This document shows, piece after piece, positions 50,567 through 63,934 of a stretch of 64,000 nt of DNA (its first letter is position 1; each line of letters starts with the position of its first letter). Origin of the DNA: an uncultured Eubacteriales bacterium (GTDB lineage Bacteria > Acidobacteriota > Aminicenantia > Aminicenantales > Aminicenantaceae). A model generated the notes under the pieces. The model did not search any database and was not told the origin of the DNA. It was given only the letters and a program-made list of their open reading frames with translations. A program made the translations under genes and the position numbers. The stretch covers positions 26,263-90,262 of the forward strand of contig CAZWHQ010000010.1 in assembly GCA_964633715.1 (NCBI GenBank). The letters run 5' to 3'.

Positions 50567-50611
50567 AACTCAGTCACTGAAACTGCGATATTATTAAAAC
50601 CTAGCTGATTT

Positions 50612-52318
50612 TTACTCTTCAATTATCCTCAAATACTTATAAATGGGATACACGATGGAGTGTTTTTCAGCACCAAGATCTTTGAGGTAATCATTCAATA
50701 GATTCCAGCCGACGAACCCATCTCCGATTTGGGGTTCGAGGCAGTAAAAAGCCATATTGGCCAGAGGTTGGGCTAAATCGATTTGGAATGTGCCGGCAGG
50801 AAATTCCTTGCGCTCCGATTTAAAAAAGCCACCTTCCAGCTTGGTCATGTTATAACCACCTTTTCTTATGGGCAGCAACTTGTCGATGATGAATTCTTCG
50901 CCGCTAACGGTTATGGGCTTATCGAGAACCGTTATTTTAATATTGTGAATCCGCAGTTTTTCCAAGACAAATTCCATGTCAGCCGGTATCAGATACCCTC
51001 GGGGAACCATTGCTTCTTTAGTGCCAACCGGTTTGGTGACCAGCTCCACATCATGGATCAATTCCGGCGGTTCGTTTTCGATGTGTCTCTGCCGAACGCT
51101 GGTGCCTGGAATTATTTCTGATGGGATATTTTGATAGGCGTAAATATCAAATTTTCCGTAGGATTCGTAAATGCCTTCGACATAGTTTTTTAAATGACCA
51201 GTTTCGGCTTCGGTTTGAACCTTGTTCACCACCTCTTCATCTGCCTGGAGACAAACCTGCTGCATCTCTTCCCCGTGTTGGTAACTGTATTCCAACAGTT
51301 CCCGCATATAGACATACTGGCTGTAAATTTTCTTTTCGAATGATTCATACCCCGGTGTTTCCACCAAAATCGACATGCGGTTTCGCAGGCCATAACCGCT
51401 GACCATGAATTTCCCTTCCGTTGACCAGATGGAATTATCGTGAGTGAATTCTGTGGGAGGCCAGCCGCGGTCCAGACCGGCGTGAAAATGAATCTCGATG
51501 CCGCCGTTCTCTCGGGTCATATTCCTTAGGGCGGGAAATATTTTTTCAGTGACGTAGCCGCGCGGCCCCGGATGAGCTGTTGTCACATTGGACGCGGCCT
51601 GCACAATAGCATAGCCGTGCCTCGCTCCCCCCATGCGGTGAGTATCGTGAATAATTATGGGATCCCATGTATTAAATATATTCTGATACGCACCCTGCAT
51701 ATTGGTGGTTTCCAGTTTAATGGCATCACGATTGACATCATATCCCTGGGCATTTTGCCGAGTCCCGGATAGTTTAGGCAAACCATCGCTGACACTTAAT
51801 GTTTCACCGCCATCAAGATTAAAATTGGGACAACTCAAAATGATCAGATTATCCAGCCAGTAGTTTTTTTCTCCAAACAGGATATCCCGCATCAACATCA
51901 GCATGGCCTCCTTGCCCTCACATTCACTGGGATGAATGCCGCCCTGCAGATAAACAACCATCTTTCCAGAACGTTGAGCCTCTCGTGCCGATGTAATTCT
52001 GGGATTGGCCATAACAATGACCGGACAGCTTCTCCCCCGGTCGCTGACAAACATACTAAATACATGGACATTTTCACTCTTCCATTTGAGTGTAGTAAAA
52101 TAGTCCAATATATCTTGAGTGGTGGCTGTGCGGGCAAAACTGGTCTTTTCAACCGGTGTTCTAAGATTCTCCTCCCAGTCACCATTCCACCCCATCGGAA
52201 CTTCGCTGCCCCAGTAAATATTCTTCTCTTGAGCTTCGGCTAAGGGTGCCACCAAAAGACACACAACAAGCAAAACAAAACAAGCAAATGATTTTCTCAC
52301 TTTAATCTCCTTCAACAT
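50612..52318 (-). CDS. M14 family zinc carboxypeptidase, secreted; third M14 in the window.
   Basis: Signal peptide at MLKEIKVRKSFACFVLLVVCLLVAPLAEA, the preferred start at 52318. The track start at 52567 adds an unlikely 83 aa. M14-like blocks AMLMLMRDIL and NLDGGE are present. Confidence 0.7.
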   Translation of the reverse strand: MLKEIKVRKSFACFVLLVVCLLVAPLAEAQEKNIYWGSEVPMGWNGDWEENLRTPVEKTSFARTATTQDILDYFTTLKWKSENVHVFSMFVSDRGRSCPVIVMANPRITSAREAQRSGKMVVYLQGGIHPSECEGKEAMLMLMRDILFGEKNYWLDNLIILSCPNFNLDGGETLSVSDGLPKLSGTRQNAQGYDVNRDAIKLETTNMQGAYQNIFNTWDPIIIHDTHRMGGARHGYAIVQAASNVTTAHPGPRGYVTEKIFPALRNMTRENGGIEIHFHAGLDRGWPPTEFTHDNSIWSTEGKFMVSGYGLRNRMSILVETPGYESFEKKIYSQYVYMRELLEYSYQHGEEMQQVCLQADEEVVNKVQTEAETGHLKNYVEGIYESYGKFDIYAYQNIPSEIIPGTSVRQRHIENEPPELIHDVELVTKPVGTKEAMVPRGYLIPADMEFVLEKLRIHNIKITVLDKPITVSGEEFIIDKLLPIRKGGYNMTKLEGGFFKSERKEFPAGTFQIDLAQPLANMAFYCLEPQIGDGFVGWNLLNDYLKDLGAEKHSIVYPIYKYLRIIEE

Positions 52319-52429
52319 CAAATAGGAATCCTTCTTCTGACGACAGGGTTCCCTTGATAAAAATTGTGCCTCTATTATTCCTGAATTTATGGTAAAAATG
52401 CAATAATCAGAAAAAATTGATACCATGAG

Positions 52430-52458
52430 GGAATAAATAGGATCAACCTGTTGTCTAA
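52430..52458 (+). promoter_or_regulatory. Possible ECF-type autoregulated promoter GGAATA-N17-GTCTAA.
   Basis: The AAC-containing -35 ggaata is at 52430-52435. The -10 gtctaa is at 52453-52458. It lies immediately upstream of the sigma-factor reading frame. Speculative. Confidence 0.25.
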
Positions 52459-52574
52459 TTGAGTGTTGAAACAGAAGGCCAAAGATCCAAGAGACATTCG
52501 AGGAGTGGACACTGAACGAACGGGAACTGCTCAACAAAGCAAGGAAGGGGGACCATACCGCCTTCAAGGAAATA

Positions 52575-53057
52575 GTGCTAAAAAATGAAAATCAGGTGGC
52601 AGCAACGGTGATTGGGATGCTGGGACACTGCACAGAGGCCGAAGATATCGGTCAGGAGACATTTATTAGATTTTATAAGTCATTGGACAAATTTAGAGGA
52701 GAATCCAGCATCAGCACGTATCTGATACGCATCGCCATAAATCTTTCTCTGAACGAAATCAAACGACGCCAGCGCCGCCGCAAACATATTTCTGATAATT
52801 TAGAAGATGGGATGGACAACATTCCAGGGAAAACTGTTTCAAAGAATAGGAGTGAAACAAGAGAGATTGTCAATCAGGCCATTCAAAAATTAGAGCCAAA
52901 ATTCCGTTCTGTACTCGTTTTACGACTCATCCTGGGCTACACCTCGCAGGAAACTGCAAAACTTCTAAAGCTGCCAATGGGAACGGTTCTTTCCAGGCTG
53001 ACCCGGGCACAGATGAAACTTAAAGATATATTGACTCCATCTTATGGGGGAGAATAA
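52575..53057 (+). CDS. ECF-family RNA polymerase sigma factor (sigma-70 regions 2 and 4).
   Basis: Region 2 DIGQETFIRFYKSLDKF and region 4 HTH TSQETAKLLKLPMGTVLSRL are present. The track start is the GTG at 52575. Conserved region 2.1 sequence (EEWTLNERELLNKARKGDHTAFKEIV) continues in frame upstream to a stop at 52467, but I see no canonical start codon there. Confidence 0.8.
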   Translation: MLKNENQVAATVIGMLGHCTEAEDIGQETFIRFYKSLDKFRGESSISTYLIRIAINLSLNEIKRRQRRRKHISDNLEDGMDNIPGKTVSKNRSETREIVNQAIQKLEPKFRSVLVLRLILGYTSQETAKLLKLPMGTVLSRLTRAQMKLKDILTPSYGGE

Positions 53058-53489
53058 ATGAAGACATCGGGGAAATCTTACAAAAAAGTCCTCAAGCTTC
53101 TCTACAGGTCTTTTGATACCGAACTAAGCAAAAAGAAAATTTTGCGACTGGAAAAAGCGCTCAATGAATTAAAAGATCTTAGAGTTGAAAAAGGGCTTAT
53201 TCAATCCAGGCGACAGGCTGTTGTAGACAGTGCCAAAAGAGCCTTTAGACCTTATTTTGCCGACCGGGTGATGGCCCATGTTGCCGCAATCGGAGATAAA
53301 AAGGAACCACAAGAGTCTTTCTATGACGCTCTGATGTTTGGATTCAAACGCCTGGCTCTTGTCGGAGCCCTGGTTATGATTATTTTGCTATTTTTCAATG
53401 TTTTTCAAGGGCGAATTATTCCTGTGAATGAAGTTTTTTTTGCTTCAGATTTTACACTCGAAGAGATTTTAAATCTGCCGATTCTTTAG
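53058..53489 (+). CDS. Putative membrane-anchored anti-sigma factor, 143 aa.
   Basis: Its ATG overlaps the sigma-factor stop (TAAATG). It has a single TM segment LVGALVMIILLFFNVF. Position and topology fit an anti-sigma factor. No strong motif. Confidence 0.45.
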   Translation: MKTSGKSYKKVLKLLYRSFDTELSKKKILRLEKALNELKDLRVEKGLIQSRRQAVVDSAKRAFRPYFADRVMAHVAAIGDKKEPQESFYDALMFGFKRLALVGALVMIILLFFNVFQGRIIPVNEVFFASDFTLEEILNLPIL

Positions 53490-53499
53490 GGAGAGAGAA

Positions 53500-54150
53500 A
53501 TGAATGTTAAGACAAAAACATATTTAATCATTATTTTTACACTGATTACTGGAATCGTCATCGGCGCATTGATTAACAGAGCCCTTCTGCAGGATCGCGT
53601 CCAGCGTGTCTTTTCGATGCGGAGTCCAAATGTTCTGACTCAATCCTACCTGGAGATCCTCAACCCCGATCCCGAACAGCGAGAACAAATCAAAGAGATT
53701 CTGGAGAGGAACGGCCAGGTTATGGATGACATTCGCTCAAAATCCCGCGAGGACCTGGAATCGGCCATGACTGCGATGATGGCCGAACTGGAATCTGTCC
53801 TCACCGCGGAACAGATCGAGAAGCTCAAAGAAAGATCCTCTCGAGGCCGCATGCCCTTCGGCAGGCCATTTGAAGAAGTTGAACTTGCCTTTCTTTCCTC
53901 AGAACTGGAGCTTACAGACGAGCAAGCTTCAAAACTGGCAACGATCCTTGAAGAATTCAGAATGCAGCCTCCGGACAAAAAGATCCCTGGAAGACCTGAT
54001 GAAATGAGGACAAATTTCAGGGGGCGAATGGATAAAAGAGAAGAGGAAATAAAAAAGATACTGAACGATGAGCAGAAACAAAAGTACGAGGAGCTCATAA
54101 AAGAACGCCGGAAAAAACCTCCGGAGGAGTTTCGATTCTTTCCCTACTGA
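53500..54150 (+). CDS. CpxP/Spy/ZraP-family periplasmic protein (LTxxQ motif) with a Glu/Arg/Lys-rich tail.
   Basis: N-terminal anchor or signal. The LTAEQIEKL and LTDEQASKL repeats are the LTxxQ motifs of the Spy/CpxP family. Confidence 0.55.
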   Translation: MNVKTKTYLIIIFTLITGIVIGALINRALLQDRVQRVFSMRSPNVLTQSYLEILNPDPEQREQIKEILERNGQVMDDIRSKSREDLESAMTAMMAELESVLTAEQIEKLKERSSRGRMPFGRPFEEVELAFLSSELELTDEQASKLATILEEFRMQPPDKKIPGRPDEMRTNFRGRMDKREEEIKKILNDEQKQKYEELIKERRKKPPEEFRFFPY

Positions 54151-54238
54151 ATTAATCAGGGAATAAAATCCCGAATCTGATTGTCTAACCTTTGTGAAAC
54201 CATTACATTCGTGTTCCTATCTCCTTCTCTGTTCCTTT

Positions 54239-54276
54239 AGGGCCGGGATTTTCCTCCTCCACCCCGGCCTTTTTTT
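54239..54276 (+). terminator. Rho-independent terminator after the sigma / anti-sigma / CpxP-like operon.
   Basis: GC stem ggccggg (54241-54247) and cccggcc (54263-54269) with a 15-nt loop, followed by T7 at 54270-54276. Confidence 0.6.
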
Positions 54277-54474
54277 CACCTCTTCAAAATGAAAGAAATC
54301 AAAGTCAGTTTTGAGACGATACTCAATCTGATCTTTATTATCACGGTTTTGCTCCTCCTTTTTCTTTAGCCGGCCTCACAATTTCTTCAACTCATAGGCT
54401 CCATTGGAATAAACTCCACGGTTCAGGTGTCTAACCAATGTTATGAAGAAACACATTCAGAAAGGAGCAGAAAA

Positions 54475-55758
54475 ATGAAAAAGAAAGTCGTATTCGGGTC
54501 AATTCTTTTACTGGTAGCAACTAGCGTTGTTTTGGGATTTGCACTTTTTCGCAACGATAAAAGCGACATTTCCCTTTTTAAGACCGAGGTCATTGAACGA
54601 GGCAATGTTGAAAACGAGGTTATCACAACAGGAACACTCAATCCTGTAATGCAGGTCGATGTCGGCAGCCAGGTTTCCGGGATCATTAAAGAAATTTATG
54701 TAGATTTTAATTCTCTTGTCACAAAAGATCAGGTTCTCGCAATATTGGATCAATCCGTTTTTTTAACAAAACTGAACCAGAACAAGGCCAACTTTCAAAG
54801 CGCTGAAGCATCTCTGGAGAAAGCCCAAATCACTCTCGAAAATCTAGAGAAAAAACACGACCGGTATGCTGAACTTTTTAAGAAAGATCTCGTGTCTTAC
54901 GAAGAAATGGAAACCATAGAAACGCAGTTCTTCAATGCAAAGGCCGATCTCAAATCCACAGAAGCCAAGCTCTCCCAAGCGCAGTCACAGCTTGAAGCAA
55001 GCCAGGTCGATCTCACATACACGATCATTAAATCACCTGTCGATGGAGTGGTCATCGATAGAAAAGTTAACGTGGGACAGACGGTAGCGGCAAGCATGCA
55101 GACCCCCGTGCTCTTTCGTATTGCTCAGGACTTAAGCCAGATGCAGGTAGAATGCAGCATCGATGAGGCTGACATCGGGATCGTCAGGGAAGGACAGGAT
55201 GTCCGATTCTCTGTGGATGCCTATCCCGATGAAAATTTTATCGGAACAGTCAGTCAGGTTAGATATTCACCTGTCATCACTCAGAATGTTGTCACATACA
55301 CAACACTTGTTGCTGTAGAAAATCCAAATCTCAAACTCCTGCCTGGAATGACAGCTACTGTGTCCATTATAGTCGCTCAAGCCGATGACGTTCTGCTCAT
55401 TCCGAATGCAGCCCTTCGGTACTCTCCCCAGTTCGATGAAAAGGATTTGGCGCAGATTAAGGAAGATCGAAGGAAAGAAGGCTCTGAATCGGATATGAGT
55501 CCCTCTAAAAAGAGGAATATTGAAGGTCCAAGTCAGAACAGAGAGGAAAGTCAACGTATATGGATTTTGGATGAAAACAACAATTTGAAACCAATCCCCG
55601 TTAAAACCGGCGTAACCGATAACTCTTACTCCGAATTGATAGAAGGACATCTGGAAGAAGGGCAGTCTATCATCACAGGAGAAGAAGTCACAAATGCTAA
55701 AACTCCAAACTCAAATTCCAGCAGCTCCATGAACCAGATGATGAGGATGATGCGCTAG
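54475..55758 (+). CDS. Efflux transporter periplasmic adaptor subunit (HlyD / MacA family).
   Basis: Start MKKKVVFG with AAAGGAG 8 nt upstream (the track start at 54427 is unlikely). It has a signal anchor, a coiled-coil hairpin region, and the lipoyl/beta-barrel blocks VSGIIKEIYVDFNSLVTKDQVL and YTIIKSPVDGVVIDRKVNVGQTV. Confidence 0.8.
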   Translation: MKKKVVFGSILLLVATSVVLGFALFRNDKSDISLFKTEVIERGNVENEVITTGTLNPVMQVDVGSQVSGIIKEIYVDFNSLVTKDQVLAILDQSVFLTKLNQNKANFQSAEASLEKAQITLENLEKKHDRYAELFKKDLVSYEEMETIETQFFNAKADLKSTEAKLSQAQSQLEASQVDLTYTIIKSPVDGVVIDRKVNVGQTVAASMQTPVLFRIAQDLSQMQVECSIDEADIGIVREGQDVRFSVDAYPDENFIGTVSQVRYSPVITQNVVTYTTLVAVENPNLKLLPGMTATVSIIVAQADDVLLIPNAALRYSPQFDEKDLAQIKEDRRKEGSESDMSPSKKRNIEGPSQNREESQRIWILDENNNLKPIPVKTGVTDNSYSELIEGHLEEGQSIITGEEVTNAKTPNSNSSSSMNQMMRMMR

Positions 55759-55769
55759 AAGGAAAGACA

Positions 55770-56990
55770 ATGAACATCACAAAAACAGCACATGTATCGC
55801 TCCATGCCCTATCACGGAATAAAATGCGTTCTTTCCTAACTGCCCTGGGAATCATCATTGGTGTCGGTGCTGTGATCGCCATGGTCAGTATTGGTCAGGG
55901 GGCAAAAGAGCAAGTGGAAAAAACATTCAGCTCGTTGGGAACAAATGTTCTTACTATCCGTCCTGGAAGTTCGTCTTTTCGAGGTGTTTCCGGAGGAACA
56001 GGAACAACCTACTCCCTAACAAACGCGGATGCCCAAGCTATCCATGATGAGTGTGAGGCCGTATTGGCCGTCTCTCCCAGTGTGTCAACACGCACACAAG
56101 TTATATACGGAAACAAAAACTGGAACACATCTATTCAAGGCACCAGTGAAGATTATCCTCTTATTAAAAATTGGGACATTTCCGAAGGCATATTCTTTGA
56201 CGAATCCATGGTTAAATCCGGACAAAAAGTTTGTGTCCTAGGGCAGGATGTCAGTAAGAGCCTTTTTGAAAACTCAGATCCCATTGGGCAGATAATCCGT
56301 ATAAAAAACATCCCTTTTAAAGTTCTTGGAGTTCTGGAGCAAAAAGGCGAGGCCGGGGGCTGGGGCAGTCAGGACGACATGATTCTTATCCCCTACACAA
56401 CAGCTCAGCGCCGACTTCTCGGCACTGTGGATACCCTTCAATCCATAGAGCTATCAGCTATCTCAGCCGAGCTCACAAATGATGCCCAAAAACAAATTGA
56501 AGAACTCCTCAGGATCAGGCACAGAATCGCCCCTGGTTCTGAAGATGATTTTAATGTTCGGAATATGACAGATATCGCAGAAGGGGCCACAGAATCTACG
56601 AAGGTTCTTACTCTCCTTCTCGGAGGAGTGGCTTCAGTTTCACTTCTCGTTGGAGGAATCGGGATCATGAATATCATGCTGGTGTCTGTCACAGAGCGGA
56701 TTAGGGAGATAGGCATCCGGATGTCTGTAGGCGCCAAAGAAAAGGATATCCTGATGCAATTTATGGCTGAAGCTATCGTTCTGAGCGTATGTGGAGGTTT
56801 CATTGGCATTATTGTAGGCCTATCTGGATCAAAACTCATTTCACAGATAGCCGGATGGCCAACCATTATTTCTATCGGAGCCATGGTTCTGGCTTTTTGC
56901 TTTTCAGCAGCTGTAGGGATCTTTTTCGGTTTTTACCCGGCCCGCAAAGCTTCAAGGCTCGATCCAATTGTAGCCTTGAAATACGAATAA
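55770..56990 (+). CDS. MacB-type ABC transporter permease (FtsX family) without an ATPase domain.
   Basis: Has an N-terminal TM, a large periplasmic domain, and a C-terminal three-TM FtsX domain with the block TERIREIGIRMSVGAKEKDI. Confidence 0.85.
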   Translation: MNITKTAHVSLHALSRNKMRSFLTALGIIIGVGAVIAMVSIGQGAKEQVEKTFSSLGTNVLTIRPGSSSFRGVSGGTGTTYSLTNADAQAIHDECEAVLAVSPSVSTRTQVIYGNKNWNTSIQGTSEDYPLIKNWDISEGIFFDESMVKSGQKVCVLGQDVSKSLFENSDPIGQIIRIKNIPFKVLGVLEQKGEAGGWGSQDDMILIPYTTAQRRLLGTVDTLQSIELSAISAELTNDAQKQIEELLRIRHRIAPGSEDDFNVRNMTDIAEGATESTKVLTLLLGGVASVSLLVGGIGIMNIMLVSVTERIREIGIRMSVGAKEKDILMQFMAEAIVLSVCGGFIGIIVGLSGSKLISQIAGWPTIISIGAMVLAFCFSAAVGIFFGFYPARKASRLDPIVALKYE

Positions 56991-57055
56991 AAAAAGAAGT
57001 GGATGAAGGAATAGAGGAGGAAAATAAAATCTAATTTATTGTAGGAGGACTGTAC

Positions 57056-59536
57056 ATGAGAATTGCAGCACTGACTCTTTTTTCTCTTTTTCTTCTTTTT
57101 TGTCTTAATCCGGCCTATGCCCAGACTGGAAAAATCCAAGGAACCGTTACATTGGAGGACGGAGAAGGACTGCCCGGAGTGGCCATCACCATTGAGGGGA
57201 CAAAAATGGCCACTTTTACTGATACAAACGGATTCTTCTCTCTTACAGGAATAACCCAGGGAGAGGTCACGCTTGTGGCTGAGTTGGAAGGCTTTGAAAA
57301 GATGAGGCGGACAGTTTTAGTCCAAAATGCAACAACAATCGTTGTCAATTTCACAGTAGAAATGCTTAAAATTTCAGAAGAGGCCGTTGTTGTGGCTGAA
57401 AAGCCGCTGCTCAGCAATACCGAAGAAATCAGCGAAACTATCCTGACGCCCTCTCAAATTTCCACTCTTCCAAGTCTGGGGGAAAAGGACATCTTCCGGG
57501 CCTTTCAGCTTTTACCTGGGATCAGTGGAAGCAATGAAGCATCATCTGGGCTCTATGTCAGAGGTGGGACTCCTGACCAAAACTTGATTCTGTATGACGG
57601 TTTTACGATATACCATGTCGATCACCTCTTCGGCTATTTCAGCGCTTTTAATATGGAGGCAGTAGAAGCGGTCCGGCTGAACAAAGGCGGATATTCAGCC
57701 AAATACGGAGGACGCCTATCGAGTATCGTGGAGCTTTACGGAAAGACCGGAAGCCCCACGGAATTCCACTTCGGCGCTGGACTCAGCATGCTCAGCGTAA
57801 ACGGTTACGCCGAAATCCCTCTTTTTAAGAAAGGATCGCTAGTGATTGCAGCACGCAGATCGTTTCAGAGCCCACTCTACAACAACATAGCCGACATGTT
57901 CGAAAATGAGCAGGGAGGAATGATGGCCAGGCAGCGTCCCGGCGGAGGACGTTTCGGTTCCACGTATGAATCCGATCCCTCTTCCTATTTCTATGATCTG
58001 AATGCAAAAGCTGAAATTCTTATCTCGTCCAAGGACACTTTCTCTCTGAGTTTCTACAACGGGAAAGATGACCTGGATAATTCCCGCACTATGACCACAC
58101 CTTCGATGATGGCGGATAGAGGAATGACCATGGAAGGAGAGGTGGTTGACGTTACAGAATGGGGAAACACAGGATTGAGCTTCCAGTGGGAAAGGAGCTG
58201 GAACCAATCGTTCTACAGCCAGTTTACAGCGGCCTATTCAAATTACTTTAATAACCGTGACAGAACCAACTCCACGACCATTTCTTTTGATCCTGATTCA
58301 GGTATAGAACCACCCCCATGGATGAACACAGACCAACCCCGAAGTTTTGAACGCGGTTCGATCGAGGATAACGATCTCAGCGATCTTACCTTTCGTCTGG
58401 ATAACAGTCTCGATATCGCCTCAAATAACCGTTTGGAATTCGGGATCCAGGTGACAGCAAACCACGTTACCTACGATTATGAACTAGACCAGTTTCAGGA
58501 AGAAAACGAAAACATAACAGAGAACCTTCAGCCCGGTGGCAGAAGACAACTCGTGGGCATCCTGGACCGAGAAGATGAAGGAACGCTATACGCTTTTTAC
58601 CTGCAGGACAGATGGACTCTTTCTGACAAACTGACTATTACACCAGGACTGCGTGTCACTTATTTTGATTTGACAGAAGACTGGTATTACGAGCCAAGAT
58701 TCTCCTTCAACCTTAAGCTGACAGATACATTCCGGTTCAAGGGGGCTTGGGGAAATTATTATCAATTCGCCAAAAAAGTGGTTAGAGAGGATATGATGCA
58801 GAGCAACAGGGAGTTTTGGGTTTTATCGGATAAAGACAACATTCCTGTGGGTGCGGCGACTCATCATATCGCCGGCGTGAGTTATGAAACCGATGAGTTC
58901 CTGATCGACATCGAGGGATATTATAAAGATCTTACTGGGCTGTCAGAGTTCGCCCTCAGGTTTACTCCAGTGTCAACCGAGGAAGACTACAATCAGTTCT
59001 TTTATGAAGGAACTGGAATCGCCAAAGGCATCGAGCTGCTGCTCCAGAAAAAATTCGGGGATTATACAGGATGGCTGGCCTACACATTGGGTCAAGTGAA
59101 GTATGAATTCCCAGATCTAGAAGATAGACCTTTCCCGGCTCTCCAGGACCAAACCCATGAATTCAAAATGGTCAACAGCTTTACACTAGGGAGCTGGACT
59201 CTGGCAGGAACATGGATTTATGCGACTGGAAAACCGTATACAGAACCTGAAGGAATCGAAAGCACAGAAATATTTTCCGGCCGGACGATAGACCGAGTGG
59301 TTATGGGAGATAAAAACGGTGCCAGGCTGCCTGCATACCATCGCATGGACCTGTCCGCCACTCTCGACTTCGAGCTGTGGGCTGGAGAGGCACAACTGGG
59401 TTTAACCGTTTTTAATGCCTATGACCGGAAGAACGTCTGGTATAAAGAATTCGATGTCATCGAAGGCGAAATAATCGAGAACAATTTTAACCTCATGGGT
59501 TTGACATTCAACCTGTTTTTCAATATTAAATTTTAA
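57056..59536 (+). CDS. TonB-dependent outer-membrane receptor with an N-terminal carboxypeptidase-regulatory-like domain.
   Basis: Signal peptide. The CarbopepD_reg block is QTGKIQGTVTLEDGEGLPGVAITIEG...TDTNGFFSL. The plug motif is YVRGGTPDQNLILYDGFTIY. The C-terminus ends in an aromatic residue (NIKF), typical of outer-membrane beta-barrels. Confidence 0.75.
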   Translation: MRIAALTLFSLFLLFCLNPAYAQTGKIQGTVTLEDGEGLPGVAITIEGTKMATFTDTNGFFSLTGITQGEVTLVAELEGFEKMRRTVLVQNATTIVVNFTVEMLKISEEAVVVAEKPLLSNTEEISETILTPSQISTLPSLGEKDIFRAFQLLPGISGSNEASSGLYVRGGTPDQNLILYDGFTIYHVDHLFGYFSAFNMEAVEAVRLNKGGYSAKYGGRLSSIVELYGKTGSPTEFHFGAGLSMLSVNGYAEIPLFKKGSLVIAARRSFQSPLYNNIADMFENEQGGMMARQRPGGGRFGSTYESDPSSYFYDLNAKAEILISSKDTFSLSFYNGKDDLDNSRTMTTPSMMADRGMTMEGEVVDVTEWGNTGLSFQWERSWNQSFYSQFTAAYSNYFNNRDRTNSTTISFDPDSGIEPPPWMNTDQPRSFERGSIEDNDLSDLTFRLDNSLDIASNNRLEFGIQVTANHVTYDYELDQFQEENENITENLQPGGRRQLVGILDREDEGTLYAFYLQDRWTLSDKLTITPGLRVTYFDLTEDWYYEPRFSFNLKLTDTFRFKGAWGNYYQFAKKVVREDMMQSNREFWVLSDKDNIPVGAATHHIAGVSYETDEFLIDIEGYYKDLTGLSEFALRFTPVSTEEDYNQFFYEGTGIAKGIELLLQKKFGDYTGWLAYTLGQVKYEFPDLEDRPFPALQDQTHEFKMVNSFTLGSWTLAGTWIYATGKPYTEPEGIESTEIFSGRTIDRVVMGDKNGARLPAYHRMDLSATLDFELWAGEAQLGLTVFNAYDRKNVWYKEFDVIEGEIIENNFNLMGLTFNLFFNIKF

Positions 59537-59548
59537 GGAGAAGAAATC

Positions 59549-60406
59549 ATGAAGAAAGAATGTAGAAAGAATATCTTTTGCGTAAATCCCAGGGCCATTA
59601 TCGGGATATGTGTCTTAGGTTTGATCGCTCTTTTTTTCACATCCTGCGCGAGTTTGGAATTGCAAAGTTCTTGGAAAAACAGCGACATTTCAATCGACGG
59701 AAAGAGCGATGACTGGGTGGGACATTTAATGTATGTGGACAACCAGAATATTTCCATTGGAGTGATGAACGACACAAACTATCTCTACGCCTGTGTGGTC
59801 GCTGAAGACCAAATTTTGATCAGCAAGATTATGAGACAGGGAATGACCCTGTGGTTCAATCCGGAAGGTGGAAAGAACAAATTTTTTGGCATCAAATACC
59901 CAAAAGGAAGAGAGGACATGCCACAAGAGGACAGGGAAAACATGAGGCCAGGCACTAAGGCCGATCCTCAAAATCGGAGGCGGGAACTCTTGGCCATCTC
60001 TAACGAAGTCGAAATCTTGCAGGAAAGAAAAGTCCCTATCCAAAGGACCACAGATAACTTAAAAGGGATCGAAGTGTTCTTAAACAGATCGACTGGATTG
60101 ATTGTGTACGAAATTAAAGTTCCGCTTCAAACTGATACCGAGCATCCTTTCGCCATCAATGCTCAAGAAGGAACCGAGATTGGCATCGGAATTGAAGTGC
60201 CGAAAATGACCCTAACCATGAACAGGCCTGCAGGAGGTATGGGCGGAGGTGGCATGGGTGGCCGAGGCGGAGGCATGGGCGGTCGAGGCGGTGGTATGGG
60301 AGGTGGAGGTATGGGCGGCCGCAGTGGAGGCATGACCGGACAACGGACGAACATGCAGAAAAGCATCAAAATCTGGGCTGTAGTCGGGCTGGCCACAGCA
60401 AAATAA
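59549..60406 (+). CDS. Lipoprotein with a C-terminal Gly-Met-rich GGMGG tandem-repeat tail.
   Basis: Lipobox-like LFFTSC. The C-terminal stretch is GGMGGGGMGGRGGGMGGRGGGMGGGGMGGRSGGM. The globular N-terminal domain is unrecognised. Confidence 0.55.
   Translation: MKKECRKNIFCVNPRAIIGICVLGLIALFFTSCASLELQSSWKNSDISIDGKSDDWVGHLMYVDNQNISIGVMNDTNYLYACVVAEDQILISKIMRQGMTLWFNPEGGKNKFFGIKYPKGREDMPQEDRENMRPGTKADPQNRRRELLAISNEVEILQERKVPIQRTTDNLKGIEVFLNRSTGLIVYEIKVPLQTDTEHPFAINAQEGTEIGIGIEVPKMTLTMNRPAGGMGGGGMGGRGGGMGGRGGGMGGGGMGGRSGGMTGQRTNMQKSIKIWAVVGLATAK
60229..60336 (+). repeat. In-frame coding tandem repeat encoding GGMGG(R/G) units.
   Basis: Read directly: ggtatgggcggaggtggc atgggtggccgaggcggaggc atgggcggtcgaggcggtggt atgggaggtggaggt atgggcggccgc. 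The minus-strand Pro-rich ORF 60163..60396 is its shadow. Confidence 0.7.
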
Positions 60407-60478: not shown

Positions 60479-63400
60479 TTGGCTAATTTTTACTTTGTCG
60501 GACGGATCGCCTTTTACGAAGCCAGGCTGTTGATGCGGTCATGGGGATTCCGTTTGTTCGCAGGTCTTGTTTTGATTATCCTCGCTATCGTCAATATCGC
60601 CATTGCCACACCCGCCTTTTACACGCCTTATTTCATGAGATCTCTCTCAGGCTTCTTGCCCTTAAACAGCCTTAAACTCTTTAATGTCTTCCAGGGAATC
60701 ATCGTCGCCTTTATGGCCACGGAATTTTTCAAGCGAGACAGACGGCATGACTCCGTCCAAGTGGTCTTTGCCCGTTCCTTTACCAATGTAGAATATTATC
60801 TAGGAAAAGCCCTGGGGATTTTTTCGGTGTTTCTTCTGCTCAATCTGGCCGTGCTGTTGTCAACTATTGCTATACACATCTTCTTTTCAAATACGCCTTT
60901 TATGCTGCAGCCCTATCTTTTGTACACACTGCTGATCTGTCTGCCCACGCTTATATTTATGATCGGCCTGTCTTTTTTTCTGTCCTCGCTCCTTAAAAGC
61001 CAGGTCGTGGTTTTTCTGGTGCTTCTGGCCTATTCCTTCCTTGTCCTGATCTTTTTGGGGACACCTTTTTTTGGCCTGTTGGATTCTTATGCGTTTTACC
61101 TGCCCCTTATGTGGTCGGACTTTATCGGTTTAGGGAACATCAGCGCTGTCCTGCTCATCCGCCTATCCTATGTGTTTCTGGGCTTAAGTTTTATTTTTGT
61201 CTCCCCCCTGCTTTTCAAACGGCTGAGGCAGTCAGCACTTTCAAATATCGTTGCGGGATCCCTCTCCGCCCTGTTTATGATTTTGGCTCTTGTTTTCGGC
61301 TTCAAATCCATGAGCGGTTTTTACGCCGACAGAGAATTCCGGCAGCAGCTTAAAGCTTTAAACCAGGAAATCGTGGGAATGCCGGTTTTAACGGTTTCGG
61401 ATTACAACATTGAGCTGGAACATTTAGGGGAAACAATCAATGTCTCTGTGGATATGAAGATGACAAATAACACACCGGCATCTATGGATTCTTTTTGGTT
61501 AACGCTAAATCCCGGACTTGAGGTTCAATCGATAACCTGGAAAGGCAATCCGCTTAAATTCAGCCAGGATAAACATCTCATCCACATCACTCCTTCCTCT
61601 ACAGTGGAACCTGGCCATTCACTCGACCTGAACATAGAATATACAGGCCAAGTCGATGAACGCTATTGTTTCCTCGATATCGACAGCAGCCGCTACGAAA
61701 ACCGGTTCCGTCTCTGGCTCTACGATATCCCCAAACACTATGCCCTGGTCACATCCGACTATGTCCACCTCACGCCGGAATCCGGCTGGTATCCAGTACC
61801 CGGGCTCTCCACAGGAAAAGCCTTCCCTGCTCCAGCCGCACCTCAATTCTCTACATATTCCCTTTCAGTTTTAACCTCTGAGGGGCAAACCGTCATTTCC
61901 CAAGGAATTCGTGAAACGCGATTTGAAAACGGACAGACCTGGCACTCATTCAAATCCGAAACAAAACTGCCGCAGATTTCACTCACGATCGGTCTCTACG
62001 AAAAAAAAGAAATCCAGGTCGATGACATCCATTACTCTGTCTACGTTCATCCCGGACATGATTATTTCACACCTTTTCTGGATGAACTGGGCGAAAATCT
62101 GCCGAACATAATACGCGAACAAAAGGATGAATACGAGGTGGTTCTCGGTTTGGACTATCCCTACAAACAGATCTCTCTTGTGGAAGTGCCGATCCACATC
62201 TACAGCTATCAGCGGCTCTGGACCGTGGCCTATGAAACCGTACAGCCCCAACTTGTTTTTCTCCCGGAAATGGGAACCTTCTGCAGCAATGCAGACTTCG
62301 AGGGCCAGGCCCGCAACTGGGAGAAATGGGGAAAATTCAAGAAAGGCGGCCCTGTCCCTCTCTCAGAAGTCCAGTCCTACTTCCTCGTCCAATTTATCAG
62401 ATCGAATCTGCTGAATGAAGGAAGTGAACAGCTGGGCTACATCAAAGGAGAGGGAATTGTAATCACCTTTCAGGCAGATATCGAACCGCAGTTCGAAGTC
62501 TTCCCGAACTTTGTCTCTTACTCCACATATTTTTCCTCGAGTGACTGGCCCGTGCTTAATGTGGCCTTCGAATCCTATATAAGGGAACGCTTTTCCCCGC
62601 CCCAGATAATGGGTAAACGAGGCGGCTTGGGTATCTCCAGAGAAGAGGAGACCAACCTGGATTTGAAGGATTTATCCCTGTCCGCGATGCTGGAGAATTC
62701 AGAAATTGAGGCAGCCGCCATCAATGACGCTCTCCATGCCAAGGGAAAAATGCTCCTGACTTTACTCGAAGCTCAAAGTGCAGATGTGGATTTTAATTTT
62801 TGGATGACTGATTTTCTAAAACAAAACAGATTCCGCACGATCTCTCAACAGGATTTAAGTGATTTCCTGTCGACATATTTTGAACTCAATCTTCCCGAAA
62901 TTATCGATCCCTGGTACACGGACAGCCAAATCCCCGGCTATATTTTCGGGGATGTCGAGAGCTATGATGTCATCGACAGAGAAAGAACCTGGACTCAGAT
63001 CAATTTCAAGGTCGCCAATCCAACCGCTGTGGATGGTGTCATAAAAATTGATTTGCGCTACCGATCGAATAAAAATTCAAAGAACGTCCAGGGGGGCCAA
63101 AGCGACTACTCCAAAGCCCTTCTTGTTCCTGCCGAGACAACGATTGACTTGGGGATATCACTTGACCAACCGCCAGCCTTGATGACCATCGACACCTTTG
63201 TGTCTCAAAATATTCCTGCACTCATCAACGTGCCTTTTTTGGGGAAACAATCTCAACGTGAGGGCGAGCCGTATGACATGGAAACGACAAAGCCCTATGA
63301 TCCTTTGGATTTTATCAGCCGCAGTGAAACCATCGTCGATAATGAAGATGAGGGATTTAAAATCCTCAGTACAACTAAGAAGAGCTGGCTCAGCCGCACA

Positions 63401-63934
63401 CTAAAGAACTTGTTCGGAACAAGAGAAGAGGAATCTCCATTCACGCTTATGAACGTGTACGATCCCCCCGCCTTCTGGTCGCTCTCGGCCAACCAGCAGT
63501 TTTACGGACAAATCATCCGTTCGGCCTATTTAAAAAAAGCCGGTGATGGAGACGATTCTGTAGCCTGGAATGTGGAACTCGAGGAAGGGGGCAGCTATGA
63601 CATTTTCTTCTATAACAGCATCCCCCTCAGGATGCTTAAGGAGATTGAGATGAGTCGGGCCGGTAAAAATACGGGGAAATCAAATTCTACTTCAGGGATA
63701 AGAGGACGATTCAATCGCGGTCCCGGAAAAAGGACCTTTAAAATACCTCATCTATATGGGACGGATGAAGTGGAGATCGATCTTTTGAGTGCCGAGCAGG
63801 GTTGGAACTTTATTGGATCATTCCAGCTGGATGCCGGGCCAAACAAAGTTGAACAGACCGATAAAAACGACACTCTCTATGTTTTGGCCGATGCCATAAA
63901 ATGGGTGAAAAGAAAGGAAACGGAAGAAATTTGA
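60479..63934 (+). CDS. ABC-2-type permease domain (about 270 aa, 6 TM) fused to an extracytoplasmic domain of about 880 aa. 1151 aa in total.
   Basis: The N-terminal hydrophobic helices have the ABC-2 family topology. The rest is soluble-looking. I could not find HEXXH or any other catalytic motif. TTG start. Confidence 0.55.
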   Translation: MANFYFVGRIAFYEARLLMRSWGFRLFAGLVLIILAIVNIAIATPAFYTPYFMRSLSGFLPLNSLKLFNVFQGIIVAFMATEFFKRDRRHDSVQVVFARSFTNVEYYLGKALGIFSVFLLLNLAVLLSTIAIHIFFSNTPFMLQPYLLYTLLICLPTLIFMIGLSFFLSSLLKSQVVVFLVLLAYSFLVLIFLGTPFFGLLDSYAFYLPLMWSDFIGLGNISAVLLIRLSYVFLGLSFIFVSPLLFKRLRQSALSNIVAGSLSALFMILALVFGFKSMSGFYADREFRQQLKALNQEIVGMPVLTVSDYNIELEHLGETINVSVDMKMTNNTPASMDSFWLTLNPGLEVQSITWKGNPLKFSQDKHLIHITPSSTVEPGHSLDLNIEYTGQVDERYCFLDIDSSRYENRFRLWLYDIPKHYALVTSDYVHLTPESGWYPVPGLSTGKAFPAPAAPQFSTYSLSVLTSEGQTVISQGIRETRFENGQTWHSFKSETKLPQISLTIGLYEKKEIQVDDIHYSVYVHPGHDYFTPFLDELGENLPNIIREQKDEYEVVLGLDYPYKQISLVEVPIHIYSYQRLWTVAYETVQPQLVFLPEMGTFCSNADFEGQARNWEKWGKFKKGGPVPLSEVQSYFLVQFIRSNLLNEGSEQLGYIKGEGIVITFQADIEPQFEVFPNFVSYSTYFSSSDWPVLNVAFESYIRERFSPPQIMGKRGGLGISREEETNLDLKDLSLSAMLENSEIEAAAINDALHAKGKMLLTLLEAQSADVDFNFWMTDFLKQNRFRTISQQDLSDFLSTYFELNLPEIIDPWYTDSQIPGYIFGDVESYDVIDRERTWTQINFKVANPTAVDGVIKIDLRYRSNKNSKNVQGGQSDYSKALLVPAETTIDLGISLDQPPALMTIDTFVSQNIPALINVPFLGKQSQREGEPYDMETTKPYDPLDFISRSETIVDNEDEGFKILSTTKKSWLSRTLKNLFGTREEESPFTLMNVYDPPAFWSLSANQQFYGQIIRSAYLKKAGDGDDSVAWNVELEEGGSYDIFFYNSIPLRMLKEIEMSRAGKNTGKSNSTSGIRGRFNRGPGKRTFKIPHLYGTDEVEIDLLSAEQGWNFIGSFQLDAGPNKVEQTDKNDTLYVLADAIKWVKRKETEEI

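Follow-up and report, generated by a model that had tools for sequence, protein, structure and literature searches.

A conserved disordered Gly/Arg/Met loop in a predicted CBM9/DOMON-like lipoprotein of a putative ECF sigma factor regulon

We found that a Gly/Met/Arg repeat encoded in a 64,000-nt stretch of bacterial DNA (the window, which is the whole stretch analysed) is, in the predicted structure, an internal loop between the last two strands of a beta-sandwich and not a tail. The protein that carries it belongs to a very large and widespread lipoprotein family without existing annotation, and its gene is a putative member of an ECF sigma factor regulon, as judged in silico from a promoter motif common to the autoregulated sigma gene and to its own operon. 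Our preferred reading, to which we give roughly an even chance, is that the lipoprotein belongs to an envelope-stress regulon and that its loop serves as a flexible, cationic binding arm. We infer this function from guilt by association and from composition; what the loop would bind, and towards which face of the outer membrane the protein would be oriented, are proposals of the same kind.

The lipoprotein, its predicted fold and its loop

The lipoprotein gene (59549..60406, + strand) is an open reading frame of 285 aa with an ATG start and a strong Shine-Dalgarno sequence (AAGGAG), and it follows the stop codon of the upstream TonB-dependent receptor (TBDR) gene after a 12-nt gap. The signal peptide (59549..59647, +) ends in ...LIALFFTSC33 when read from the sequence, which fits a lipobox (F-T-S-C33), and a helix is modelled at residues 14-31. 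The Cys is invariant in the family (alignment A2), and the strict lipobox [LVI][ASTVI][GAS]C is present in 132 of the 266 full-length family members. The initial annotation had called the product a lipoprotein, and by its lipobox with Cys33 the window protein is indeed a predicted bacterial lipoprotein.

The AlphaFold2 model of the window protein (mean pLDDT 81, pTM 0.74) is an all-beta sandwich of 11-12 strands that superimposes on CBM9 or DOMON structures. The nearest folds are the sugar-binding CBM9 and the haem-b-binding DOMON-type subunits; close structures include the CBM9 of T. maritima Xyn10A (PDB 1I82), the gamma subunit of ethylbenzene dehydrogenase (2IVF_C), NxrC (7B04_C) and BACUNI_03838 (4JPQ). 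On this model, the fold class is CBM9/DOMON-like, and neither a cupredoxin fold nor a CusF OB-type fold was found for the window protein. The core of the sandwich is encoded at 59654..60199 (+; aa 36-217) and contains a variable charged insert with lower-confidence helices (59903..60004, +; aa 119-152). The block-mean pLDDT of the insert is 65-74 across residues 121-150, its sequence and length vary between members (alignment A1), and its net charge is about -1.

The resemblance to this superfamily was seen in the fold and not in profile searches. The Pfam scan of the window protein gave zero families at E <= 0.1, the Pfam CBM9_1, CBM9_2 and DOMON profiles did not match it, and the NCBIfam scan gave zero matches. 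Alignment by hhalign with neighbouring CBM9-DUF5916 domains gave a probability of 8% (E 0.004), which is too weak for homology. A family profile compared with PDB sequences returned only non-significant low-complexity matches (the FUS RGG region, E 0.019; linkers; ZraP, E 0.93), and phmmer with the loop alone as the query returned zero matches. Unlike the CBM9/DOMON superfamily, the window protein is stand-alone and lipid-anchored, has no HMM-level match, and carries a 35-aa disordered Gly/Arg/Met loop before its last strand as well as the charged insert in the middle of the domain. The residues invariant in the family alignment (DG, W56, ND, Y80, W102 and YE) have the appearance of framework motifs. 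In the superfamily, a Trp pair clamps a sugar end in CBM9, and Met/His/Lys are the axial haem ligands in DOMON and EBDH-gamma; W56 and W102, together with the nearly invariant K111, may be part of a ligand site. The sugar- or haem-binding residues of the superfamily are not identifiable in the window family, and no conserved Met/His/Lys haem-ligand pair is evident in the alignment.

The repeat itself (GGMGGGGMGGRGGGMGGRGGGMGGGGMGGRSGGM; aa 229-262; 60233..60334, +) consists of six Met-terminated units (AGGM, GGGGM, GGRGGGM, GGRGGGM, GGGGM and GGRSGGM) and forms the core of a disordered loop at aa 229-266. The initial annotation had quoted this string exactly as it is translated from the open reading frame, and had described it as a C-terminal tail of 40 aa encoded by an imperfect 15-21-nt tandem repeat. 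The tandem repeat is borne out by Tandem Repeats Finder, which called a period of 21 nt with 3.0 copies (60248-60309, 82% match, score 82) and a period of 15 nt with 2.3 copies. The length and the position, however, need correction, since the stretch is 34 aa long and is followed by 23 more residues, TGQRTNMQKSIKIWAVVGLATAK. These include the last beta-strand IKIWAVVG (60365..60388, +; aa 273-280), which is conserved family-wide as LKIWAxVQLA with W276 and L281 nearly invariant, and which in the model is docked into the beta-sandwich at a pLDDT of about 94 and closes it after the loop. Residues 229-266 fall below a pLDDT of 50, which agrees with the flexible arm that had been suggested.

The loop also contains RGG-GMGG-RGG at aa 239-248. 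A di-RGG motif is defined by at least two RGG with 0-4 residues between them, and the window protein carries one of the form RGG-X4-RGG; the RGG/RG assignment is membership of a compositional class and not of a homology family. Eukaryotic RGG/RG regions such as that of FUS likewise have Arg-Gly-Gly repeats with interspersed hydrophobic or aromatic residues, but the window protein belongs to the bacterial envelope, where it has no nucleic-acid context, and its usual interspersed residue is Met and not Tyr or Phe. Three other interpretations of this region were rejected. An antisense Pro-rich open reading frame (60163-60396) is the mere complement of the Gly codons. A folded polyglycine-II or PPII bundle does not fit, because a 3-residue helix does not keep step with units of 5 and 7 residues and because the pLDDT is below 50. 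A C-terminal sorting signal was discarded because the last strand falls short of the length of a transmembrane helix and is placed with confidence within the sandwich.

Conservation and length variation of the loop

A sequence search with the window protein found 817 homologues, and the beta-sandwich alone as the query found 2,882 cluster representatives (about 2,900). The hosts are Aminicenantes, Acidobacteriota and FCB-group bacteria, and all members come from uncultured MAGs. Among the matches listed, 120 of 120 homologues have the stretch between IGIGxExPK and LKIWAxVQLA. Of 143 representatives from many phyla, sharing no more than 50% identity, 128 have a Gly-rich loop in this place; since about 90% of diverse members carry such a stretch at an equivalent position, the repeat is more than chance. 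The initial annotation had raised the concern that homologues might lack the tail, and they keep the stretch.

The composition of the loop is also conserved across phyla. Across 208 members the loop (median 35 aa) is 61% Gly, 12% Met and 11% Arg, with 0.4% His, 0.9% Asp and 0% Cys. The centres of GGxGG motifs are Met in 44% of cases in the window clade and Arg in 36-37% family-wide. Met-Met spacing peaks at 7 and 5 and not at the distances of MxM or MxxM. Only 2 of the 128 diverse loops lack Arg, while 20 (16%) lack Met, and in some members Phe or Tyr stands in place of Met within the loop. The mean net charge is +4.4 for the loop and -5 for the core. Three homologues (P0032, P0053 and P0057) carry a JGI YgcG/TPM label, which probably reflects the Gly-rich stretch alone; a YgcG/TPM-domain identity was rejected, with no Pfam match to TPM_phosphatase.

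Loop length ranges from 9 to 77 residues across the family, and the initial suggestion that repeat number varies between strains is supported by two pairs of homologues. The sole difference between P0024 and P0124 is an indel of 36 aa (108 nt) with a 15-nt direct repeat at its borders, and a 6-aa indel distinguishes P0065 from P0126. Slippage at the DNA repeat would make loop length evolvable. An assembly artefact, the other concern that had been raised, was rejected because the independent JGI assembly P0121 has an identical repeat, with 2 substitutions elsewhere, and because the loop is conserved across the family.

Gene neighbourhood and a shared promoter motif

All genes described here lie on the + strand of the window. 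An ECF sigma factor (52470..53057; Pfam Sigma70_r2, r4_2 and ECF) is preceded by an ECF-type promoter-like site at 52430..52457, which would provide autoregulation; its start had been listed as GTG 52575, and a homologous in-frame extension runs from 52470. Next to it lies a gene for a small membrane protein (53058..53489) that gave no match in the Pfam scan and clusters with the post-sigma gene of 14 loci. Its position, and only its position, suggests an anti-sigma role. The third gene encodes a membrane-anchored LTXXQ protein of the Spy/CpxP/ZraP family (53500..54150; Pfam PF07813 at 6.7e-9, with a weak NCBIfam CpxP match), which has zero His and zero Cys and whose Met cluster is not conserved. 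A further ECF-type promoter-like site, GGAATAAA-N-GTCTA (54406..54433), is found upstream of a same-strand string in which the lipoprotein gene is the fourth. This string starts with a MacA-like periplasmic adaptor (54476..55758; NCBIfam RND_mfp 3.4e-50 and MacA 8e-50; Pfam HlyD_D23), for which ATG 54476 is preferred to GTG 54427 as the start, and continues with a MacB-type permease (55770..56990) that has MacB_PCD and FtsX without a fused ATPase and with a TBDR that has an N-terminal CarboxypepD_reg domain (57056..59536; Pfam). A generic scan of 52-61 kb for sigma-70 promoters and terminators, which performed no better than on shuffled sequence, found no terminator between the TBDR and lipoprotein genes. 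Downstream of the lipoprotein gene lies a gene for a 1151-aa multi-pass membrane protein with an M1-peptidase-like region and Golvesin_C (60479..63934; Pfam). It adjoins the family gene only in L003, L009 and L018, the closest relatives, so a functional coupling to it was rejected.

We compared the neighbourhoods of family genes across loci. LTXXQ genes are the commonest immediate neighbour of the family: of the 78 loci that have enough upstream DNA, 22 have an LTXXQ gene immediately before the family gene in the same orientation, and Pfam matched LTXXQ in 22 of 80 immediate upstream neighbours and Metal_resist (PF13801) in 11 of 80. In four loci (L053, L054, L056 and L077), the sigma gene, the gene in the anti-sigma position, the LTXXQ gene and the lipoprotein gene are consecutive. 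A close TBDR homologue (39-83% identical along most of its length) adjoins the family gene in 12 loci in three arrangements, and CarboxypepD_reg is the top downstream Pfam family (9/75). The top Pfam families of the 155 immediate neighbours are LTXXQ, Metal_resist, methyltransferases and CarboxypepD_reg/Plug. MacA/MacB-type efflux genes occur no more than 6 kb away in 7 of 83 loci, and CBM9-DUF5916 outer-membrane proteins within 6 kb in 8 loci. Any regulon gene is found within 6 kb in 32 of 83 loci, and more than half show none. Among the best 25 Pfam families per flank, the 155 immediate neighbours showed no copper family (cupredoxin, CusF, CopC/D, HMA, P-type ATPase; cop/cus/pco), and neither MsrP/MsrQ nor any further Msr family was seen there.

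A de novo dyad count discovered the motif GGAAT(A/G)AA-N15-19-GTCTA, which is present at 3 sites in the window (52430, 54160 and 54406) compared to 0.48 expected, and 0 of 100 shuffles reached 3. The canonical ECF pattern nGAAC-N15-18-CGT is absent upstream of the sigma and LTXXQ genes. In 1.23 Mb of loci, 38 matches lie no more than 200 nt upstream of genes, including sigma (11), LTXXQ_MR (10), the lipoprotein gene (8), TBDR (3), other LTXXQ (2) and MacA (1). The 10 LTXXQ_MR sites precede pairs of LTXXQ_MR and lipoprotein genes, and the 8 sites directly precede the lipoprotein gene, among them those in L043, L046 and L054. As a consensus match, the GGAAT-N-GTCTA promoter is putative, and the regulon may also include a sigma-dependent small RNA with an anti-Shine-Dalgarno motif. 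A candidate transcript of about 85 nt lies at 54194-54280.

This arrangement resembles the sigma-E/Cpx envelope-stress regulons and the CnrYXH three-component ECF system. The common features are an ECF sigma gene accompanied by genes for a small membrane protein and for a helical protein of the periplasm that is anchored in the membrane, an autoregulated promoter motif, chaperone-type proteins of the periplasm together with proteins of the outer membrane, and perhaps a small RNA. It differs from them in its sigma group and its promoter; the E. coli sigma-E targets are unrelated in sequence to the regulon members found here, and the LTXXQ sensor is without conserved metal-ligand residues.

Possible roles of the loop

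In our preferred reading, the protein would be a lipid-anchored envelope protein whose CBM9/DOMON-like sandwich carries a conserved disordered loop of about 35 residues between its last two strands, and its gene would be a core regulon member of a conserved ECF sigma factor. The regulon would also comprise the gene in the anti-sigma position, the membrane-anchored LTXXQ protein, secreted or lipoprotein LTXXQ proteins of the Spy/CpxP/ZraP type, the CarboxypepD_reg TBDR and sometimes MacAB-type efflux genes. Upon envelope stress, the membrane-tethered sandwich domain would display the loop as a flexible binding arm, in which Gly would give reach and plasticity, Arg would give affinity for anionic partners (unfolded acidic outer-membrane proteins, LPS or phospholipid head groups, or acidic glycans), and Met, or Phe/Tyr in some lineages, would give malleable hydrophobic contacts. 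The lipoprotein would probably act jointly with the adjacent LTXXQ chaperone. The preference for Met over other hydrophobic residues, which reaches 44% of GGxGG centres in the window clade, is left unexplained by a purely generic hydrophobic-contact model. Another point against this reading is that the usual role of the CBM9/DOMON fold is the binding of sugars or haem, which may be what the protein primarily does, with a subordinate part for the loop.

The same physical logic can be recognised in the GroEL Gly-Met tails, the Sis1 G/M region and the Met-lined cradle of Spy. Client handling by GroEL needs the flexibility and hydrophobicity of its tails (PMC11978752; see also PMC12571646), and the chaperone activity of Spy requires its Met residues in reduced form, with repair by MsrPQ (PMC12503329). 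Both the (GGM)4M tails of GroEL and the G/M region of Sis1-type J-proteins are disordered low-complexity segments of Gly and Met. In contrast to both, the stretch described here is an internal loop with 23 residues after it, its units are of 5 or 7 and not 3 residues, it has about 11% Arg, and it belongs to a beta-sandwich lipoprotein of the cell envelope without an ATPase machine; Pfam finds no chaperonin domain, and the protein does not have a period-3 (GGM)n tail at a chaperonin C-terminus. The LTXXQ proteins Spy, CpxP and ZraP share the compartment and the type of envelope-stress regulon, and ZraP also has a Gly/Met-rich disordered end (GAGMGMGYGGCGGGGHMGMGHW in E. coli). In contrast, the lipoprotein is all-beta and has no PF07813 match, with the LTXXQ members as its neighbours, and where the ZraP tail carries His and Cys for Zn, the loop carries Arg.

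Metal binding is a weaker rival. The initial annotation had compared the tail to the copper proteins CopA/PcoA and CusF, and the Met-rich Cu(I) motifs of CueO/PcoA/CopA, CusF and Ctr1 do, like the loop, place several Met in a flexible part of an envelope protein. The Met thioethers of the loop would then bind Cu(I)/Ag(I), possibly Zn, and buffer the metal or hand it to a MacAB-type pump, the TBDR or the LTXXQ protein, with the ECF sigma/anti-sigma/LTXXQ trio as a CnrYXH-like metal sensor. We consider this unlikely, although Met is the commonest non-Gly residue of the loop in the window clade (12%) and although the window order of sigma factor, small membrane protein, membrane-anchored helical periplasmic protein and efflux pump is one that we take to be like that of cnrYXH-cnrCBA. 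The host lineages are probably anaerobic for the most part, and Cu(I) would then prevail. The copper analogy itself found no support: the fold is CBM9/DOMON-like and the neighbours include no copper family within the scope given above. The loop is cationic, which disfavours cation capture, and its Arg is as conserved as its Met. With Met spaced by 5 and 7 and almost no His, Asp or Cys, the loop is unlike the motifs of ZraP, CueO, PcoA or CusF, and Met is dispensable in part of the family, as the 20 Met-free loops and the members with Phe/Tyr instead show. The window LTXXQ protein likewise lacks His and Cys. What remains as a residual link to metal is the Metal_resist match of 11/80 upstream partners, the Gly/Met/His tail of the zinc-responsive LTXXQ protein ZraP, and the MacAB-type genes in 7/83 loci.

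In another rival, the CBM9/DOMON-like domain would capture a ligand, either a glycan or one of the haem/porphyrin type, on the cell surface or within the periplasm, and would hand it on to the co-encoded TBDR, with the loop as a mere flexible lid or tether. Surface glycan-binding and hemophore-like lipoproteins are precedents. The nearest folds fit such a role, the three gene orders in which a close TBDR homologue adjoins the lipoprotein gene in 12 loci are a classic sign of functional coupling, and CBM9-DUF5916 outer-membrane proteins are found nearby in 8 loci. This explanation is nevertheless improbable in our view, as neither Pfam CBM9/DOMON profiles nor profile-profile comparison with CBM9-DUF5916 (8% probability) link the families, the invariant residues look like framework with no evident haem-ligand pair, and the LTXXQ linkage (22/80) is stronger than the TBDR linkage (about 12/83). 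The conservation of loop composition across phyla would also be left unexplained.

That the exposed Met acts as an oxidant sink or switch, with Met-sulfoxide altering the loop, a periplasmic Msr repairing it, and the loop protecting or signalling to the envelope stress system, is very unlikely: host lineages that are probably anaerobic for the most part, many members with few or zero Met and no Msr family among the best 25 of the immediate neighbours stand against the many solvent-exposed Met of a disordered loop, the envelope-stress type of the regulon and the precedent of reduced Met and MsrPQ repair in Spy (PMC12503329).

Taken together, these results give the first structural and regulatory placement of a very large unannotated family in poorly studied phyla, whose lineages are abundant in sediments and subsurface. 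They outline a conserved ECF-sigma envelope-stress regulon, with a promoter motif, LTXXQ partners, a TBDR and a possible small RNA, which is heterologously testable, and they caution in annotation that 'Met-rich' need not equal 'copper'. The natural series of Gly/Arg/Met loops of 9-77 residues, with or without Met, could reveal the role of Gly-Met segments, which has long been debated for GroEL. As a bolder proposal, which we put forward with little confidence, the RGG/GGM-type disordered loop on its CBM9/DOMON scaffold would be the working part of an undescribed ECF-sigma envelope-stress system and, together with LTXXQ chaperones that have Arg/Met-rich tails, would hold unfolded outer-membrane proteins or anionic polymers of the envelope, or gather them into clusters; if true, this would be the first 'sticker-and-spacer' low-complexity quality control outside the bacterial cytoplasm.

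Gene, repeat and predicted fold of the lipoprotein

The lipoprotein gene at 59549-60406 (+ strand) starts with ATG and encodes 285 aa, and the 12-nt gap between the stop codon of a TonB-dependent receptor gene and this ATG contains AAGGAG, a strong Shine-Dalgarno sequence. The ORF and the repeat peptide quoted in the initial annotation are exact. The repeat covers residues 229-262 (nt 60233-60334) and consists of six units, each ending in Met (AGGM, GGGGM, GGRGGGM, GGRGGGM, GGGGM and GGRSGGM). It is thus 34 aa long and not 40 aa as first described, and it is not the C-terminus, since TGQRTNMQKSIKIWAVVGLATAK comes after it. Tandem Repeats Finder reported a period of 21 with 3.0 copies (82% match, score 82) and a period of 15 with 2.3 copies. 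The repeat uses a mixture of Gly codons (GGC 10, GGT 8, GGA 7, GGG 0) and its G+C content is 69% compared to 44% for the remainder of the gene, and therefore the repetition is primarily at the protein level. An assembly artefact had been considered; the homolog P0121, from an independent assembly and with two substitutions elsewhere, has an identical repeat, which shows that the repeat is no artefact of this contig. The Pro-rich 77-aa ORF on the minus strand (60163-60396; PPPIPPPRPPMPPP) is the mere complement of the Gly codons and was rejected as a gene.

Pfam and NCBIfam scans of the protein gave no match. A word-index homology search found 817 proteins, 260-315 aa in length, all lacking a Pfam domain and nearly all labelled hypothetical, from Aminicenantes, Omnitrophota and similar metagenome-assembled genomes (MAGs). 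When only residues 33-224 were used as the query of a full HMMER scan, so that the low-complexity stretch was excluded, 2,882 cluster representatives passed E <= 1e-3, of which 1,607 also passed E <= 1e-10. Scanning one genome per species gave 98 loci encoding the family, all in MAGs from uncultured hosts, with Aminicenantes dominant and the other hosts being Acidobacteriota, Ignavibacteria, KSB1, Zixibacteria, Calditrichia, Latescibacterota, Omnitrophota, Bacteroidota, Rhodothermales and Eisenbacteria.

The AlphaFold2 model (36-sequence alignment; mean pLDDT 81, pTM 0.74) has a signal helix at residues 14-31 that ends at the lipobox F-T-S-C33, in agreement with the original assignment as a lipoprotein, followed by a beta-sandwich at residues 36-217 (mostly pLDDT >90) with a charged insert of lower confidence at residues ~119-152. 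Residues 229-266 have pLDDT <50, and the last strand at residues 273-280 (pLDDT ~94) returns into the sandwich; therefore, the "tail" is a disordered loop between the last two strands. The flexible arm proposed in the initial annotation is thus retained as a disordered segment but not as a tail. Its predicted fold places the protein in the CBM9/DOMON-like class, as a lipid-anchored domain of this kind whose last two strands are separated by the disordered loop. It matches no curated sequence family. When aligned by hhalign with the CBM9-DUF5916 domains of neighbouring proteins, the IDG..W, ND..LY and WFDP motifs were aligned despite a probability of 8%; with this score and no Pfam match, a sequence-level relationship to CBM9 is too weak to claim. 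The protein was also compared with LTXXQ (Spy/CpxP/ZraP-type, PF07813), GroEL, YgcG/TPM and copper proteins and lacks a defining feature of each; the name "YgcG", which JGI gave to a few homologs, is probably due to the Gly-rich stretch only.

Composition and length of the loop across the family

The Gly-rich stretch between the IGIGxExPK strand and the LKIWAxVQLA strand was kept in 120/120 homologs among the matches listed, and its absence from homologs, an objection foreseen in the initial annotation, was not observed there. Measured over 208 members, loop length ranges from 9 to 77 aa with a median of 35 aa, and the composition is 61% G, 12.4% M, 10.8% R, 4.3% P and 3.2% S, while His (0.4%), Asp (0.9%) and Cys (0%) are scarce. 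The x of GGxGG is most often Met (44%) or Arg (36%), with Phe at 4%, and Met-Met spacing has maxima at 7 and 5. The mean net charge is +4.4 for the cationic loop and -5 for the acidic core. Among 143 diverse representatives at <=50% identity, a Gly-rich loop of 12 aa or more is present at the equivalent position in 128 (G 55%, R 11.5%, M 8.5%, P 8%); 2 of these loops are without Arg and 20 without Met. The other 15 lack a Gly-rich run of that length; among their tails listed, Arg, Pro, Ser and Glu are abundant ahead of the last strand. Phe or Tyr replaces Met in some lineages, such as GGRGGFGGGRGGFGG in locus L071 and GGYGGRGG in homolog P0091. Since Arg is near-universal and Met is missing or swapped in some loops, what stays constant across the family is a long, flexible loop of Gly and Arg, in which Met is a strongly preferred yet replaceable hydrophobic residue, especially abundant in the clade of the window.

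Variation in repeat number had been predicted, and loop length indeed differs among members of 90%-identity clusters: the sole difference between the homologs P0024 (261 aa) and P0124 (297 aa) is a 36-aa gap in the loop, and P0065 and P0126 differ by 6 aa within it. At the DNA level, copies of a 15-nt direct repeat, GGCATGGGCGGCCGT, mark the exact ends of the 108-nt difference of the first pair, and the other 186 aligned bases are identical. This pattern is characteristic of slipped-strand or repeat-mediated deletion/expansion. Since a 15-nt repeat is shorter than the usual assembler k-mers, true loop-length polymorphism is likelier than assembly collapse.

Gene neighbourhood and putative ECF sigma regulon

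In the window, the lipoprotein gene lies in a string of plus-strand genes encoding an ECF sigma factor (52470-53057; listed start 52575), a small membrane protein in the anti-sigma position (53058-53489), a membrane-anchored LTXXQ protein (53500-54150), a MacA-like adaptor (54476-55758), a MacB-type permease (55770-56990), the TonB-dependent receptor (57056-59536), the lipoprotein itself and a 1151-aa protein (60479-63934). The in-frame extension of the sigma ORF (52470-52575) is homologous to the N-termini of related sigma proteins (ERELLNKARKGDHTAFKEIV) and contains no ATG, GTG or TTG; either the start is non-canonical (CTG 52512 or ATC 52485) or the factor is truncated. This homology implies that the minus-strand M14 peptidase ORF at 50612-52567 is over-extended. 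For the MacA-like gene, ATG 54476, preceded by a good Shine-Dalgarno sequence (GAAAGGAG), is a more probable start than the listed GTG 54427, which overlaps a promoter-like site. The 1151-aa protein has a multi-pass membrane portion at its N-terminus, together with a weak M1-peptidase-like region and a Golvesin_C domain; in loci L003 and L009, two paralogs on either side of an ABC ATPase gene resemble an unusual ABC-2-type transporter.

Neither the sigma nor the LTXXQ genes are preceded by GAAC-N-CGT, the textbook ECF pattern. A dyad, GGAAT-N18/19-GTCT(A), was found upstream of 10-11/20 sigma genes and of 13/15 genes for LTXXQ_MR, a secreted LTXXQ subtype. In the window, GGAAT-N15-19-GTCTA occurs three times, always on the plus strand (0.48 expected; 0/100 shuffles reach 3): directly before the sigma ORF (52430-52457), before a candidate small RNA (54160-54187) and directly before MacA (54406-54433). 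In 1.23 Mb of locus sequence there are 59 matches, with ~24 estimated by chance, and 38 of them lie <=200 nt upstream of a gene, namely sigma (11), LTXXQ_MR with the lipoprotein gene next (10), the lipoprotein family (8), receptor (3), other LTXXQ genes (2), MacA (1) or anything else (3). In silico evidence suggests that the family belongs to an autoregulated regulon of a conserved ECF sigma factor. No terminator-like site was found between the receptor and lipoprotein genes in a scan of 52-61 kb, and on the simplest reading a putative transcript from the 54406 site carries the lipoprotein gene in fourth place. The longer form GGAAT(A/G)AA-N15-19-GTCTA, seen in loci L005-L077 and the window, delineates a putative ECF regulon over several phyla.

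The candidate ECF-sigma-dependent small RNA (54160-54282, +; ~85 nt) has a promoter-like site (GGAATAAA-N-GTCTAA, 54160-54188), after which come a body rich in C and U and, at 54241-54277, a G+C hairpin of 9 bp followed by a U7 tail, with anti-Shine-Dalgarno-like CCUCC motifs in loop and body and a predicted fold of -18.4 kcal/mol (z -2.8). Its sole Rfam match was CcsR1, below threshold (E 0.55). Its promoter and terminator pieces are conserved in locus L010 (65-90 and 155-192). A 26-codon hydrophobic mini-ORF (54290-54370, +; MKEIKVSFETILNLIFIITVLLLLFL) follows it, between two promoter-like sites.

Neighbourhoods were compared in 83 non-redundant loci by clustering ORFs of at least 90 aa. An LTXXQ gene lies directly upstream on the same strand in 22/78 loci with enough upstream DNA, and a Pfam scan of 80 immediate upstream neighbours found LTXXQ (22), Metal_resist PF13801 (11) and then SAM methyltransferases (7). 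The upstream LTXXQ proteins are of two unrelated subtypes, LTXXQ_MR (secreted, ~180 aa, Arg/Met-rich ends, mainly Aminicenantes-labelled loci) and a lipoprotein of ~325 aa in MAGs that are variously labelled or unassigned. The LTXXQ_MR proteins encoded directly upstream in L013-L037 and L055 have Arg/Met-rich low-complexity N- and C-termini, one of which in L014, GNRMFMRGGRGFSRMGNRGGFSMREGF, echoes the loop in composition. Genes for sigma factor, anti-sigma-position protein, membrane-anchored LTXXQ protein and lipoprotein are consecutive in L053, L054, L056 and L077, and in L014, L028 and L033 the LTXXQ-lipoprotein pair is convergent with the sigma unit. The commonest downstream neighbour is a CarboxypepD_reg TonB-dependent receptor (9/75), and in 12 loci the family adjoins a receptor gene closely homologous to that of the window (39-83% identity, covering most of the length), placed upstream, downstream or convergent. 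CBM9-DUF5916 outer-membrane proteins and MacA/MacB genes lie <=6 kb away in 8 and 7 loci, respectively. Many loci, such as L007 and L008, have none of these partners; partner linkage is frequent, not obligatory.

SAM methyltransferase genes (Methyltransf_25/11 or Methyltransf_3) lie immediately upstream in L001, L003, L015, L027, L065, L066 and L068; the window counterpart is at 48579-49247, and the L003 enzyme has an apparent N-terminal hydrophobic segment. A link between these enzymes and the Arg-Gly loop would be entirely speculative. In the close relative L003, the lipoprotein gene comes straight after the Methyltransf_3 gene, whereas in the window ~10 kb (49604-59536) separates them, with an epimerase, an M14 peptidase, the sigma/anti-sigma-position/LTXXQ genes, MacAB and the receptor; therefore, the regulon block was either inserted here or lost there. 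The window has three M14 zinc-carboxypeptidase-like genes (within 41719-45746 and 50612-52567, both minus strand), and such genes recur near the family in L003, L008, L015 and L030.

Proposed function

The protein is a membrane-tethered CBM9/DOMON-like domain with a conserved, disordered, cationic, variable-length Gly/Arg/Met loop, and its ECF-sigma regulon is rich in Spy/CpxP/ZraP-type and outer-membrane proteins. The known Gly-Met segments considered here are in chaperone-type proteins; Sis1 has a G/M region, and the ZraP tail of E. coli K-12 reads PRGAGMGMGYGGCGGGGHMGMGHW. For GroEL tails, genetics showed that hydrophobicity and flexibility are required (PMC11978752), and PPII propensity is reported in PMC12571646. 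Spy chaperone activity needs reduced Met in its cradle (PMC12503329), and protection of OMPs by Spy is described in PMC8546600. We infer that the loop would act as a flexible binding arm in envelope quality control.

It is unlikely that the loop binds metal through Met. The Met enrichment, the Metal_resist/ZraP kinship of the LTXXQ partners and the CnrYXH-like gene order followed by an efflux pump are consistent with such a metal arm, but Arg is conserved as much as Met, the net charge is positive, His, Cys and Asp are virtually absent, Met spacing is non-canonical, some members are Met-free, and the window's LTXXQ protein has no conserved ligand residues and no His or Cys. The original analogy with copper proteins was not borne out by the neighbourhood either, since cupredoxin, CusF, CopC/D, HMA and P-type ATPase are not among the best 25 Pfam families of either immediate flank. 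It is similarly doubtful that the protein captures ligands for the TonB-dependent receptor via its CBM9/DOMON domain: the fold and the persistent, though rearranged, receptor adjacency point this way, but the conserved loop composition would be left without explanation and linkage to LTXXQ is stronger than to the receptor. A redox-sensitive sink or switch made of loop Met, for which Spy/MsrPQ is a precedent, is improbable because Met-poor members exist and Msr families are absent from the best 25 Pfam families of either flank. Each of these three readings is compatible with the binding-arm model.

The anatomy and regulon of the family are solid, and the description as a whole, including the conserved loop and regulon membership, is very probably correct; the binding-arm mechanism is tentative, and we give the overall explanation about an even chance. 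The family itself, large and without annotation, appears new. So do the conserved insertion of a disordered Gly/Arg/Met loop into a CBM9-like scaffold and the family's membership of a conserved ECF-sigma/LTXXQ regulon that has a promoter motif of its own. In the binding-arm model, Gly would provide reach, Arg would attract anionic partners (unfolded acidic OMPs, LPS/lipid head groups or acidic glycans), and Met, or Phe/Tyr in some lineages, would make adaptable hydrophobic contacts; since LTXXQ_MR has Arg/Met-rich disordered ends, it and the lipoprotein may use similar chemistry.
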